From assembly GCF_017348835.2 (NCBI RefSeq), contig NZ_CP072312.1: a stretch of 64,000 bases of DNA; one strand, 5' to 3'. Every line of letters begins with the position of its first letter. The stretch's first letter is position 1. Source of the stretch: Escherichia coli. Lineage in GTDB: Bacteria; Pseudomonadota; Gammaproteobacteria; Enterobacterales; Enterobacteriaceae. Shown in pieces: positions 46,001-52,000 of the stretch. Position numbers: made by a program.

Positions 46001-49000
46001 TGTATCGCTGGCCTACACGCAGCGGCTTAAGGAAGCCGGATTACTGGCATCAACAGGGAGTACTGGCGACTCGTATGACAACGCGATGGCTGAGAGCATC
46101 AATGGTCTTTACAAAGCGGAGGTAATACACCGTAAGAGCTGGAAAAACCGTGCAGAAGTGGAACTGGCCACACTAACGTGGGTGGACTGGTATAACAATC
46201 GACGATTGCTGGAAAGGCTGGGCCATATTCCTCCGGCAGAAGCAGAAAAAGCTTATTATGCTTCCATCGGAAATAATGATCTGGCAGCCTGAGTTCACAG
46301 ATAAAACACTCTCCAGGAAACCCGGGGCGGTTCATATTGCAAAAAATAAATTTTCCAGTTTCGTCCCTGATACAGGCTGGATTTGGATAATCCTGAATAA
46401 CTGCCGTCAGATTTTCCAGCAGATCTATTTGACGAGCATGTTTTTGTTGAATACGATCCATCGGATACATAGGAACCTCCTCACAAAGGATTCTATGGAC
46501 AGTCGATGCAGGGAGTTCACGTCTCCCTGCATCGGCGATTTTCAATTTCAAATTTTAACGTGGCATTAACCACGTAATTAATATACTAATTATCTTTCGT
46601 ACTGTTACCTTTTTAAATCATAAAAACTCTGATATTTGAACGAAGTCAAATTTCTTTTATTCATCATCATTTTTTAGAAAAAATCGTTCCATCTCAGATG
46701 ATACCTTCTCCCTGATATCTTCAACCATATTGGCATATTCAAACTTTGGATTTCCGGAGACATGAGGACTGAGAGACTCAATACCCAAAATTTTCGCTAC
46801 TGATGATTGTGTTTTTACAACGCATTCAAGAAGCAATTTATTAAACTCAGTCTGATTAAATGCAGACTCTTTACGCTCCATCTGAGCCTCATGTACACGA
46901 AGCCCCAGTTCAAGAAGCATTGAAGCTGTTGCTGAAAAACTGACATCTTTTTCCCTTGCCCCTTCCTGTCGACGCTTCTCAATAATCGCATTTATTTTTT
47001 CATAGGCATCATTGCTGATATACAGGTTCACCTTAGCCATTAAAGATTACCTTTTTTGAACATAAAATAAAGTTAATTTAGAAACACTAAAATTCATAAT
47101 GCAAACAGGGACGCACCGCTAGCAGTGCCCCTGGCGGTATCCTATAAAGAAACACACCGCGCCGCTAGCAGCACCCCTAATATAAAATAATGTTTTTTAT
47201 AAAAATAGTCAGTACTACCCCTACAAAGCGGTGTCGGTGCGTTGTTGTAGCCGCGCCGACACCGCTTTTTTAAATATCATAAAGAGAGTAAGAGAAACTA
47301 ATTTTTCATAAAACTCTATTTATAAATAAAAATCAGCAAAAACTTGTTTTTGCGTGGGGTGTGGTGCTTTTGGTGGTGAGAACCACCAATCTGTTGAGCC
47401 TTTTTGTGGAGTGGGTTAAATTATTTACGGATAAAGTCACCAGAGGTGGAAAAATGAAAAAATGGATGTTAGCCATCTGCCTGATGTTTATAAATGAGAT
47501 CTGCCATGCCACTGATTGCTTTGATCTTGCAGGCCGGGATTACAAAATAGATCCTGATTTACTGAGAGCAATATCATGGAAAGAATCCCGTTACCGGGTT
47601 AATGCCATCGGTATTAATCCGGTAACGGGATATGGCAGCGGACTGATGCAGGTAGATTCCCAGCATTTTAACGAACTGGCCCGCTATGGAATTAAGCCGG
47701 AACATCTGACAACAGATCCCTGCATGAACATTTATACCGGTGCTTATTATCTGGCAATAGCCTTTAAAAAATGGGGCGTCTCCTGGGAGGCCGTTGGTGC
47801 ATACAATGCCGGATTCAGGAAGACCGAACACCAGAACCAGAGACGTCTTGCCTACGCATCAGATGTTTACCGGATTTATACCGGGATAAAAAGCAGTAAA
47901 GGTATCCAGATTCCGGCCACGAAGAAATCACTTCCGGAAATTAACAGCGTGCAGAACAATTAATCTTACAGACATTGTCAGATACCGGTTATGCCGCAAA
48001 AGCGGCATGGAAGGCCACACACAAAAATATCATATGAGTGACAATACTGACTGGCCGAAGCCCCGCGAAGCGGGCAATGCCGTTCACTTAAGCGGAGCGG
48101 TGCTGCGTTTCACCGGATAACGGGTTTTTGATATCTTAACTGCCCTCGGCCTTGATGGTCGGGGGCGTTTTGTTATGAACACAACTTCCAGAGCACCCCG
48201 CAGATGCTCCAGTCGTTTCGGGATGGTCCCCGGTGATGCCGTATTTCCCAGCACTATCATTTCTGTCGCGATAAACTGGAACGCGAACTTAAAGCTGATT
48301 TCTGACGCCGCTTTTTTGTGTTTCTCAGCCGCTTTTGTTGCCTCACGCCGTATCAGGTTGTAAGCCAGCAACATGCCCCACACCTCCTGTTCCAGCAGCT
48401 CAACCTTACGGCTTCTCAGCACCAGGGCATTGTTCAGCAGGCTGCTTTTCAGGTTTCTGAACCCGACTTCGATTTCCCATCGTGAATGGTAAAGTTCCGC
48501 TACCTCTTTTGCTTTGTAGCGGTCTGCCGGGAGTGATGTCTGCACCGTTTTCTCCACACCGTTCACCTCATAAGTCACCGCCCGGGCGTACCAGAACTCT
48601 GGCAGTGCAGGATTCTTTTTCCTCGCCTGCAGCGACACCTTCAGTTTCAGAAGCCTGTCTCCGGGACCGTAACTTTCTTCTGTTTCTGCCGCGATATTCT
48701 TCCACGCAGGCAGTAGCCAGTGGCGGTTACAACCCTGCTGGTTCAGCGTCAGCAGCAGGTCTGCGCTGTAAAAGAGCTTGTCAAACAGCGTAATGGAGTT
48801 ATCCGGGATAGTGGCGAGCATGGAGTGAGCCGGCACGGTTTCGCTCCGCCGGTAAGGCGCGGTCACGGCATTCAGCAAAATGTGGCTTCCCAGATTCATC
48901 AACGCCACCAGACGCATGACCGGGTAGGCGCTCTGCCGCTCAGTGGATGTGTTGGCAGAGCCATAATATTCACGCAACTCAGGTTCATCAGGTGTCCTGA

Positions 49001-52000
49001 ACGGTGCGCCATCAATGGCAAAAAGCTGCAGGCCGTGCCAGTCATCCTTCAGGTAACGTTCCGAGCCCCATGTCTGTGCGGTCTGGCGGAAGAGCCATTC
49101 CACCGGGGCGGCCCCCACGCGCTGACGCGCCTGGGTGACAGCGCTGCGGGCCAGCAGGTTCATCCCCGCTTCGCCATCCGCGCTCAGGTTCAGACGGCGA
49201 ACCACATCGGTAATTGGCTCATTGCGGAAAAAGGCCATGGCCACCACCATCCAGATAACCATGTCCCCCGGTAAACGACGGCGGCGAACGGTCGCATGCG
49301 CAGAAAGCGTCAGACAGTGCTGTATCCACTCGACGGGAAGGTGCTCTGCAAACAGTTGTGCAGAGGGCGGTGGCATAAGCGGATGGTCACTGAAATCGAG
49401 CAGATCATTGAGAAGTGGCATAAGAAAACGGCTCCCTGTTGTGGAAGCCGTTATAGTGCCGCAGTTTAAGGATCGGTCAACCGATCCTTAACTGATCGGC
49501 ATTGCGCGAAGCGGGAACCCATCTTATATATAACCGGTAACTGCGCAGCCTCCTGCCAGACCATTTTTCGCGGGCACAATATTTACAGACAACCGGAAAG
49601 CCAGTTGATGAAATTGAGGTATATCAGACGACACAGCGATGCCGAAGAATGATAATATAAGTAAAGCCCCGAAAATTTTTCGGGGCTTTACTTATATTAT
49701 CATGACTTCCACTTTCTGAACTGTTCGGCAATCACCCATAACGCCTTGTTGATTCTTATATCACCATCAATACCTGTAATGGCTCTTGTCCTGGTATTTT
49801 TCCCGGAGGCACTTCGCCCCGATAATCCACCTTTTATCATATTCTCCTGAGCCCGCTGCCAGGTTGTCCAGAGATCGTTCTGTTTATTCTCCCGACGACG
49901 GGGAGTAATTATCTGTTCAGGCGTCACTGGCGTTTTATTTTCATCTTCATACCTGACCATCAGTGCAGCTCTGCCAAATAAATGTTGCTCGTCACTGTTA
50001 AGATGAATTTCTTTCATCGCCTCCATATTATCAGTGACCTTATCAAAGACACCGAGTACTTCATACGCTCCCTCGATAACCTGCCCGACAATATCACCTT
50101 TATGTGGAACGCGGATTTCGCCAAAATTATTTCCGCACACCAGGCCATTTGTGCAGACAAAACGAAAAATTCCGGGGATCATCTGATAACTGGATGAACC
50201 ATCATGTGAATTAAGCAGGATAATTTCAGGAACTTCCTGCCCGTTAATATGCCCTTCCCTGCGAAGACGTAACATATGTTTACTGTATTCGCGACGTCCC
50301 AAATCACGAACCCGACTCTGACAGGCAAAGAATGGCTGGAAACCTTCATCACGTAACTTATTGATGATATTGTTGGAATATACGTATAACGTTCACTCCG
50401 GGACTCATGTTTATCACCGGAAAATACCGAAGGCACGAACTGCATTAATTCATCATCCGTTAAAGGACGTTCACGGCGGATGGAATTATACCGACCAAAA
50501 CGGGAAGCTAATCGCATAACAGCTACTCCTTTATGAAAGAATAAATTTAATAAAAAACTTTTCCGCTTAATATCATCCCTCCCGGTCACTATTAACAAGA
50601 TTGCAACAATCAGGAGAAATATTCATCACATCTGGTCAGCAGATCGCCCGGATATCGAGGCCGGCACGCTTAATCTGACGCAGGAACTGTTTGAAGTGAT
50701 CGGCTTCCGCAATGTTGATATGGCGGAACTGCGTATCCACACCCCGGCTGAGCGCGTAGCTATAGCTGAAGGCCATCTTTTCCGGGTGGCTTTTGCGATA
50801 TTTTTTCAGCTCAGTCAGGCTGCTGAATTCCAGGACGTCCCACTCTTCCCCGGTGTTTTTTTCTTCCCGGCAACAAGAAGCGTGTACGACGCGGTGTTAA
50901 CGTGGATATTTCGGGTACTCATCCTGCTTTCTCCTCTCTCTGGTTTTCAGCCCCCATCATCTTTTGAGTTTCGGGAGCCGCGGTTTTGACGTTTTGCGGG
51001 GATCTGCCTTTTGTTCCCTCCGGTATTCACCATCACCTTTTTGAGAACCTTCGCCGCAAGGGGCATCACTGCCACGGCCGGAAACGACTGTCCGGGGGCA
51101 GACCGCAAAAGTTTTTGCCTGCTTTTGGGCAAAAAGTTTTGCGGGATGTACATTTCACCCTGGACTGGCGGAGACGTCTTTGCCCCCGGCGACAGGGGCT
51201 TAAACAGGTGAATGGCACCGGACACAACAACGGGCAGGGACCCGCCGCAACGACGGAGAGCGCGTGCGCGAAACGGCGTTGCCCCTTACATCCCGGCGGC
51301 CTTTTGCCGGAATGCCAGGAGCGCAGGCCACGGCGCGACAGAGGCGGTGCGACCGGAACGGTCGCTGCAAGCCAGGGTTTCGCGTCAGGGATGGAAGCCC
51401 GCCAGGGCGGAGACAGCTTCGCTGGCTCCGTTCACGACAGCCCGCCCCGCCAGGGGGACGCCCGGAAAAGCCATAAACAGGAGAGGAACGGAAAGAAGAG
51501 GAAGAGGAAAAAGAAGAAGAACAATAACAAGCACGGTAACCATAGAAAAATAACATCAGAAAAAAACATTCCGGACACATCACAAACAGGAAGGGTAACG
51601 GGCGACGCGTCAGCATGGCCCGCTTCCCTTCCGGCAGGCGTCAGCCTGCCAGGGGTTTTCGCGCGGGCTGACAGGCGGCCTCCACCGCCTGCCCTGTATC
51701 ACCTGTTTCTGCTGCCCTGAAGGATATAGTGACCACCGAGGAAAACCGCCTGCTGATTCGCCACAAAATCGCAGATTTCATCAACAATCTGCGCGGTGGT
51801 GAGCGGTTTCTGCCCCATATCACGACGCCGCACATTAATCACGGCCCTGTAATTACGCAGAATTTCGCGGGTTTCCGTGTTGATATTCATGACATGTGCT
51901 CCCCGTCCAGCGCCTGTAACACAACGTCCATTGCTTCGCGTTCTTCCCTGACGAATGCGTCACCGTCGCCCCCGTTCTCACTCCCGACGGCATACAGGCG

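Follow-up and report, generated by a model that had tools for sequence, protein, structure and literature searches.

An intact ISZ-like insertion sequence of the IS4 subgroup in the leading region of an F-like Escherichia coli plasmid

Introduction

Which insertion sequence (IS) lies next to the transfer origin of the F-like EHEC plasmid NZ_CP072312.1, how did it get there, and is its presence recent? The leading region of F-like plasmids adjoins oriT, opposite to traM and traJ, and its first gene encodes a lytic transglycosylase (PMC2797631). The SLT-domain transglycosylase of the gene X type, next to oriT, is counted as a leading-region gene (PMC2797631). To classify the element, we used the criteria published for the IS4 family and its subgroups, i.e., size, ends, and length of the direct repeats (PMC2266710, Table 1). 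The analysis covered a stretch of 64 kb of this plasmid, hereafter the window.

Results

Boundaries of the element and reconstruction of the empty site

The 11-mer CGCGAAGCGGG occurs at positions 48064-48074 and 49505-49515, with 11 of 11 bases identical, and these are its only two occurrences when both strands of the 64-kb window are scanned. The repeat does not extend further, since the left and right copies are preceded by C vs. G and followed by C vs. A. The chance expectation of an 11-bp match at a fixed pair of positions is 4^-11, i.e., around 2.4e-7. The two copies enclose 1,430 bp (48075-49504), whose 18-nt ends match at 16 of 18 positions: CAATGCCGTTCACTTAAG at the transposase-distal end (48075-48092), which carries the IS4-subgroup signature, and CAATGCCGATCAGTTAAG, reverse-complemented, at the other. 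Hence, the original prediction holds: the element ends in inverted repeats and has an 11-bp duplication on both sides.

Other copies place the boundaries at the same bases. Both are repeated exactly at four other genomic sites, and we found no reference copies of the IS with ends beyond 48075 or 49504. The element is 100% identical to E. coli plasmid copies annotated as "IS4 family transposase", and such identical copies are present in three database plasmids. Copies with 99-100% identity and the same ends are also found elsewhere, flanked by 11-bp duplications of their own (CCCGAACTGAA, CAGCCTAGCTG, and CAGTCTAGCTG); the copy in pAA has no duplication.

Without the element and one copy of the repeat, the flanks give a reconstructed empty site of 811 bp, which aligns as one ungapped piece, at around 99% identity, with the best-matching unoccupied plasmids. 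There are 4,069 F-like plasmid records covering at least 80% of this query. Three empty-site plasmids were read base by base: all are colinear with the window and have a single 11-mer, with no bases gained or lost at the junction. As the deletion product is colinear with more than 4,000 F-like plasmids, the element is a simple insertion, as had been proposed, and nothing speaks against it. The colinear empty sites with a single 11-mer also rule out a chance repeat or a rearrangement junction. We thus regard it as almost certain that an intact ISZ-like IS of the IS4 subgroup entered the spacer between gene X and the DUF932 gene of an F-like plasmid by simple transposition.

Transposase and subgroup

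The transposase is encoded on the minus strand by a single uninterrupted ORF of 445 aa (48084-49421; ORF scan, Pfam, NCBIfam), with no frameshift, as described for the IS4 family (PMC2266710). Its catalytic residues D137, D214, and E318 have the spacing D-76-D-103-E, within the family's range of D(60-110)D(100-150)E (PMC2266710), and region C1 has the Y(2)R(3)E(6)K signature (YHSRWEIEVGFRNLK at residue 311). We looked for missing DDE or YREK residues in this protein and found all of them present. Pfam returned Nterm_IS4 (1.3e-31) and DDE_Tnp_1 (3.8e-22), with PF13006 at 109 bits for a cut-off of 25, and the NCBIfam model transpos_IS4_1 (NF033592) scored 255 bits for a cut-off of 115. These scores and the DDE and YREK residues agree with the assignment to the IS4 family made earlier. 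The exact protein is already present in NCBI, and the sources for its cluster all give only "IS4 family transposase".

The element also agrees with every published IS4-subgroup criterion that we tested. Its 1,430 bp are inside the subgroup's size range (1,400-1,650 bp), and both ends fit the consensus -AATR--------WTW----, with AATG at positions 2-5 and TTA at positions 14-16. The direct repeats are 11 bp long here and at three other sites, where the subgroup has 10-13 bp; close relatives of the element make duplications of 10-12 bp. On the basis of its sequence, we assign the element to the IS4 subgroup as an ISZ-like member, distinct from IS4 proper.

Plasmid context

The window carries the landmarks of an F-like transfer origin: FinP and the traJ 5'UTR (Rfam, 46464-46575), a TraM ORF (46657-47040), and, at 47349, TTTGCGTGGGGTGTGGTGCTTTTGG, which we take to be the F-type nic-region sequence. 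Gene X, an ORF169-type SLT-domain lytic transglycosylase, is encoded on the plus strand at 47454-47963 (169 aa from the ATG at 47454). PGAP starts it at a GTG at 47361 (200 aa) and one other gene call gives 169 aa. Facing it on the minus strand is a DUF932 gene (49700-50598), which is frameshifted here into two overlapping ORFs, annotated as "frameshifted" in pO103, and intact in pO55 and p01_3327-1. Past oriT, the genes follow in the order SLT, DUF932, antirestriction, methylase, and ParB. The locus thus fits the definition of an F-like leading region by its position beside oriT and by its first gene, and the element lies in the spacer between gene X and DUF932, around 700 bp from oriT. The original prediction was right to place it in the leading region, but not in saying that it separates gene X from the first gene of this region. 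Since gene X is itself a leading-region gene, the IS separates the first from the second, i.e., from the convergent DUF932 gene. A literature search gave no match for orf169 together with the leading region. Rfam gave nothing significant at the target site; its other match away from the target, besides FinP and the traJ 5'UTR, was an IS3 frameshift pseudoknot.

Being downstream of both convergent genes, the insertion leaves all coding sequences uninterrupted, and it is probably near-neutral. This would explain its persistence as a marker in pO103-like and pO55-like plasmids.

History of the insertion at the gene X site

The element is found at the same site, in the same orientation, and with the same duplication in 33 plasmids of PLSDB, including pO103-like EHEC plasmids and pO55, from human, cattle, pig, deer, and food isolates. 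The flanks of four occupied plasmids differ from each other by 2-11 substitutions in 2,600 bp, and from those of three empty-site plasmids by 101-214. Between the window and pO55, the IS copies differ at 19 alignment columns (16 mismatches and a 3-bp indel in 1,433 bp), for 9 differences in 2,600 bp of flanks. Hence, the divergence of the IS is around three times higher.

With these data, histories other than one ancestral insertion are also conceivable. The spacer might be a hot spot where variants of the IS inserted independently in pO103-like and pO55-like lineages. The excess of divergence inside the IS would be in line with this, as would the window copy being closer to chromosomal copies at the gnd site (8 differences) than to the copy of pO55 (19). 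At gnd, the allelic duplications CAGCCTAGCTG and CAGTCTAGCTG, with the variant base in both copies, point to repeated insertion at one position, and some IS4-subgroup elements have a striking specificity for their target arms (PMC2266710). Yet the occupied flanks are nearly identical and differ strongly from those of the three empty sites, as expected after one ancestral event, and the grouping of the IS copies would also arise if a gene X-site copy had seeded the other sites. Furthermore, pCPWW7-IncF and strain Z1323HEC0422 have an intact copy elsewhere while their gene X site is empty, and the dyad symmetry of this site is not significant (4/12, P=0.37). Independent insertions thus seem rather unlikely, at about one chance in four; as far as the sequences can tell, the flank haplotypes speak for one insertion at the gene X site, and the IS divergence points the other way.

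A private insertion in this isolate or its immediate ancestors is very improbable: the perfect repeat copies, the intact ORF, and the three 100% identical database copies would fit it, but the 33 PLSDB plasmids (pO103 and pO55 among them) share its site, orientation, and duplication, the occupied flanks form one tight haplotype group, and the pO55 copy is 19 alignment columns away. Since the copies of the window and pO55 differ at these 19 columns, the insertion is an inherited lineage marker and not a new event in the isolate. The insertion had been called relatively recent. The perfect repeats and the intact ORF are consistent with this description, but it was inherited and is common to the 33 PLSDB plasmids.

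Hairpins inside the element

A pattern scan revealed a terminator-like hairpin followed by a T-run just inside the distal end (48141-48167, plus strand), which would stop transcripts coming from gene X, antisense to the transposase. The same scan found a ten-pair hairpin followed by TTTTCTT directly upstream of the transposase ATG (49427-49452, minus strand), with a GGAG ribosome-binding site within its 3' arm. This second hairpin would act as an insulator against read-through transcription and translation. A hairpin and T-run of unrelated sequence are found at the same place in canonical IS4 and in ISPsy33. The transposase-proximal end (49466-49504) comprises an 18-bp inverted repeat (49487-49504), a 12-nt perfect palindrome surrounding the -35-like hexamer TTGACC, and three GATC sites at 49471, 49483, and 49494.

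Discussion

Proposed mechanism

To our knowledge, no element of the IS4 subgroup has been studied biochemically. By analogy with IS10 and IS50, of the same family, the transposase would excise the element by cut-and-paste, the two 3'-OH ends would attack target strands 11 bp apart, and gap repair would leave the 11-bp duplication. Such conservative transposition has been inferred from IS10, IS50, and IS231A (PMC2266710). The hairpin and T-run before the ATG, together with the distal-end hairpin, might protect the transposase gene from transcription that starts outside the element, and activity may be coupled to Dam methylation through the three proximal GATC sites.

Possible target preference

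Elements of this clade tend to insert in G+C-rich hairpins that resemble terminators, at the centre of the dyad, as observed at gnd, at tdk-adhE, and at sites in Salmonella; the gene X site fits this pattern only weakly. At the latter, there is no statistical support for GCGAAGC forming a strong mini-hairpin in the target DNA (folding z = -0.9; dyad 4/12, P=0.37), and its stem and loop vary among related plasmids. Seven look-ups of near-identical transposases for further insertion sites returned only the gene X or the gnd site.

It is an even bet whether the ISZ-like clade is a group of terminator-seeking IS that insert in G+C-rich dyads, cut at the hairpin axis at the same positions, and replace the terminator. 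The target would be a short G+C-rich dyad surrounded by A and T tracts, with a half-site of around AAACC|C, and the cuts would fall 10-12 bp apart with the hairpin axis at their centre. Insertion could then recur at the same base positions between convergent genes, as may have happened at the Salmonella sites and at the terminators of gnd (twice) and tdk-adhE. In F-like plasmids, the spacer between gene X and DUF932 would be a weaker, half-site target. The hairpins and T-runs near both ends of the IS would replace the destroyed terminator. If true, this preference would explain why the IS remains limited to one or two copies in a genome, found at the same few intergenic sites, and would add a documented case to the target-arm specificity noted for the IS4 subgroup.

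The insertion is real but ordinary, is already annotated in public records, and has little importance beyond annotation. It marks one lineage of EHEC/aEPEC virulence-plasmid backbones (pO103-like and pO55-like), and may aid plasmid typing.

Comparison with known elements

Among names from the literature and databases, homologues gave only "IS4 family", ISCro3 (78%), and ISPsy33 (59%). ISEc13 is a name that goes with "IS4 family transposase" (ISfinder; Prokka output) (PMC9837563). "IS4" would be an easy mislabel, corrected here: the element is related to the ISZ relic of K-12, but intact.

The element could be mistaken for canonical IS4 itself (the 1,426-bp K-12 element encoding InsG), given the same family and domain architecture, the nearly equal length, and the proximal 34 nt, of which 33/34 agree and where the three GATC sites coincide. 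Direct comparison with the K-12 copy rules this out: identity between the transposases is just 38% over 424 aa, the only other nucleotide similarity is one weak stretch at 68%, and the end bases differ (C...G in the element, T...A in IS4). As the type element of the subgroup, IS4 (insG) shares with our element Nterm_IS4 and DDE_Tnp_1, the YREK motif, the -AATR...WTW ends, the three proximal GATC sites, and the hairpin and T-run before the ATG. Its DDE spacing is almost the same (75/104 vs. 76/103), and its duplication, of 12 bp, is likewise long.

The ISZ of K-12 (pseudogene insZ, b4573) has 92.5% nucleotide identity with the 71% of the element that it retains, and has the same ends (CAATGCC...GGCATTG). 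It also lies in a spacer between convergent genes (tdk and adhE), with a 10-bp duplication (CCCAGAAGGG). ISZ is a relic of 980-989 bp, with an internal deletion of around 410 bp and a frameshifted ORF, whereas our element is full length and intact. This relic is fixed in about half of the complete E. coli genomes.

ISCro3 and ISPsy33 (names from NCBI sources) are different elements from other hosts, with homologous transposases of 438-442 aa that are 78% and 59% identical to ours, respectively; ISPsy33 resembles our element in its ends and in the hairpin before the ATG, but lacks the GATC sites. Finally, IS10/Tn10 and IS50/Tn5 have DDE/YREK transposases of the same family, but belong to other subgroups: they make 9-bp duplications, have the end signatures CT... 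and CW..., and are distant in sequence from the element. Both are known to prefer symmetric targets (PMC2266710).

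A simple insertion of an IS4-family element beside gene X

The spacer between gene X, which encodes an SLT transglycosylase, and the convergent DUF932 gene contains an element of 1,430 bp (48075-49504), with one uninterrupted transposase ORF of 445 aa on the minus strand (48084-49421). The original prediction had described 48064-49515 as an IS4-family insertion with terminal inverted repeats and an 11-bp flanking duplication, and this description was correct. The 11-mer CGCGAAGCGGG was found at 48064-48074 and 49505-49515 and nowhere else in the window, both strands considered; neighbouring bases do not prolong the repeat on either side. 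For two fixed positions, the probability that an exact 11-mer flanks the two ends by chance is ~2.4e-7. The termini, CAATGCCGTTCACTTAAG and (as reverse complement) CAATGCCGATCAGTTAAG, match at 16 of 18 positions, with 1,430 bp between the duplication copies.

The transposase matched the Pfam domains Nterm_IS4 (1.3e-31) and DDE_Tnp_1 (3.8e-22), and the NCBIfam model transpos_IS4_1 with 255 bits (cut-off 115). D137, D214, and E318 form its catalytic triad, separated by 76 and 103 residues, and the Y(2)R(3)E(6)K signature reads YHSRWEIEVGFRNLK. The IS4 subgroup has been delimited by a size of 1,400-1,650 bp, ends of the form -AATR--------WTW----, the YREK motif, and direct repeats of 10-13 bp (PMC2266710), and the element agrees with it in size, ends, motif, and repeat length. 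The predicted family assignment was essentially correct. An identical protein is present in NCBI as "IS4 family transposase", with 856 members in its 90%-identity cluster, and annotated DNA copies occur in RefSeq E. coli plasmids at 99.9-100% identity. The insertion sequence is already known and annotated as IS4-family, and its site is already present in published plasmids (pO103, pO55).

To rebuild the empty site, we removed the element and one duplication copy, and searched PLSDB with the resulting 811-bp query. At least 80% of it was covered in 4,069 records, the top matches running from 1 to 811 as a single piece at ~99% identity. We also read three unoccupied sites base by base: in an IncF plasmid (its strain also has an occupied plasmid of 100% identity), in pMAR2 of E2348/69, and in a Salmonella plasmid. 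All three have a single 11-mer (variants CGCGAAGCGGG, CGCAAAGCGGG, and CGCGAATCGGG) and are colinear with the window, so the reconstruction proposed as a check was passed.

Plasmid context

The stretch 35657-61803 is 99.96% identical to plasmid pF2_18C_FIB. The local order is ehxCABD, an IS3-family element, a truncated traJ with FinP and the traJ 5'UTR, traM, oriT, gene X, the IS, the DUF932 gene, and then further leading-region genes for antirestriction, methylase, and ParB. An F-type nic-region sequence lies in oriT at 47349. The IS3-family element (~1.3 kb) has at least five copies at 97.8-100% identity (35-1345, 4176-5486, 25925-27235, 34351-35662, and 45025-46190), with an ALIL frameshift pseudoknot at 45360-45476. 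The tra region adjoining oriT is disrupted, since traJ is cut short by one of these copies next to the ehxCABD operon.

The PGAP call for gene X (47361-47963, 200 aa) has a GTG start inside the oriT nic region. From the ATG at 47454 the product has 169 aa, the length of the classical ORF169, and the annotated start is therefore probably too far upstream. The IS had been said to separate gene X from the first leading-region gene. It does adjoin gene X, but gene X is itself counted among the leading-region genes (PMC2797631), so the IS lies between the first and the second of them. As gene X and the DUF932 gene are convergent, the IS lies downstream of each, without breaking any ORF.

The DUF932 gene (ORF273-type; 49700-50598, minus strand) is frameshifted into two overlapping ORFs. 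pO103 is annotated with this frameshift too, whereas an intact gene of 822 bp is present in pO55, p01_3327-1, and the empty-site plasmids; the defect is unrelated to the IS. The stop codon of the DUF932 gene is overlapped by an inverted repeat with perfect 27-nt arms, 1 nt apart (49649-49703), conserved in empty-site plasmids, which looks like a strong bidirectional terminator.

Distribution and age of the insertion

In PLSDB, 33 plasmids cover at least 80% of a query of 2,801 bp that extends across the two junctions, including pO103-like EHEC plasmids (99.8-100% identity) and pO55-type plasmids (99.2%). All occupied plasmids read at the junction have the same site, orientation, and 11-bp repeat. 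Among four of them the flanks differ by 2-11 substitutions per 2,600 bp, against 101-214 to three empty-site plasmids, which fits a single ancestral insertion passed down in a plasmid lineage and speaks against repeated insertion. However, alignment of the window and pO55 copies of the IS shows 19 differing columns (16 mismatches and a 3-bp indel), a divergence ~3x that of their flanks, and the window copy has only 8 differences from chromosomal copies at the gnd site. The site may thus have seen repeated insertion, or gene conversion of the IS. Whichever history holds, this is not a private recent event: of the predicted "relatively recent simple insertion", the simple part stands with the colinear empty site, whereas recency holds only in the sense that the repeats are perfect and the ORF is intact, since 33 plasmids share the insertion.

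In one strain (CP148340 and CP148342), an occupied plasmid coexists with another F-like plasmid whose gene X site is empty. In pCPWW7-IncF, the gene X site is likewise unoccupied, with an intact copy of the IS at another position. Hence, the site is not filled efficiently.

Other insertion sites and target preference

Other copies of the IS were found at few places: downstream of gnd in the chromosome, in a T6SS region of IncF plasmids, and in a pAA plasmid. The pAA copy, like ISPsy33 of Pseudomonas, has no target duplication and unrelated flanks on its two sides, a pattern that suggests recombination between copies or some later rearrangement. At gnd, the IS lies in the adjoining hairpin with an 11-bp duplication, CAGCCTAGCTG or CAGTCTAGCTG. 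These alleles have C or T at position 4, each time in both repeat copies, and the two IS variants are 22 nt apart, so two independent hits at the same position are the best explanation. At this chromosomal site, IS1 or IS200-type elements often lie beside the IS. Solo 87-bp fragments of the transposase-proximal end (91-93% identity) occur at two further loci (L041 1501-1587, L042 1501-1586), each preceded by a stretch similar to the hairpin flank at gnd (CCTAGCTGGGGGTTTTCT.TGCACAA).

Around half of complete E. coli genomes have, between tdk and adhE, a relative of 989 bp with an internal deletion and 92.5% identity (L039 1501-2489 and L046 1927-2906, K-12 tdk-adhE spacer), annotated in K-12 as "insertion sequence ISZ" with pseudogene insZ. 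This relative lies within a hairpin with a perfect 8-bp stem, ACGGCCCC-AGAA-GGGGCCGT, and has a 10-bp duplication. The duplication is centred in a G+C-rich hairpin flanked by A and T tracts at gnd, at tdk-adhE, and in two relatives, L047 (Salmonella) and L054 (91% and 79% aa identity, respectively), with folding z-scores of -1.7 to -4.0. Half-sites align roughly as AAACC|C. Compared with all window positions, dyad symmetry gave a Fisher combined P of ~2e-5 over seven sites, a post hoc count on a small sample. At the gene X target, the left half is good (GAAGCCC|C) and there is a stem of 5 bp (CCCGC-GAA-GCGGG). The target is nonetheless a weak example of hairpin targeting, as neither its folding (z = -0.9) nor its dyad symmetry (4/12, P=0.37) is significant. 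A preference of this IS clade for terminator hairpins is a mildly interesting lead. Since "spectacular" target-arm specificity is known for some IS4-subgroup elements (PMC2266710), it would be an extension rather than a discovery.

Putative control features and relation to known elements

Just upstream of the transposase gene, and on its strand, lies a 10-pair hairpin with a trailing TTTTCTT; the structure stops 5 nt short of the ATG and includes the ribosome-binding site GGAG. In canonical IS4 and ISPsy33, the equivalent place is taken by a hairpin plus T-run of unrelated sequence, which supports a putative conserved insulator against read-through. A second terminator-like hairpin (48141-48167) faces transcripts arriving from gene X. 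Of the four GATC sites of the element, three cluster around a TTGACC hexamer within the terminal 35 bp on the proximal side. IS10 and IS50 are known to be under Dam-dependent control, and by analogy such control would be a reasonable inference here.

Canonical IS4 was ruled out as the identity of the element, as the transposases are 38% identical (K-12 copy). The proximal-end DNA is nevertheless alike at 33 of 34 nt (window 49471-49504); beyond this and one weak 68% stretch, the two elements have no further DNA similarity. Both have three proximal GATC sites at identical positions, and in both the distal end is without GATC, removed by the two inverted-repeat mismatches. "ISEc13" is a name in use as an IS4-family label (PMC9837563). 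Among named homologues, the transposase is closest in ISCro3 (78% aa identity), followed by ISPsy33 (59%), which differs from the window element in being without the three proximal GATC sites.
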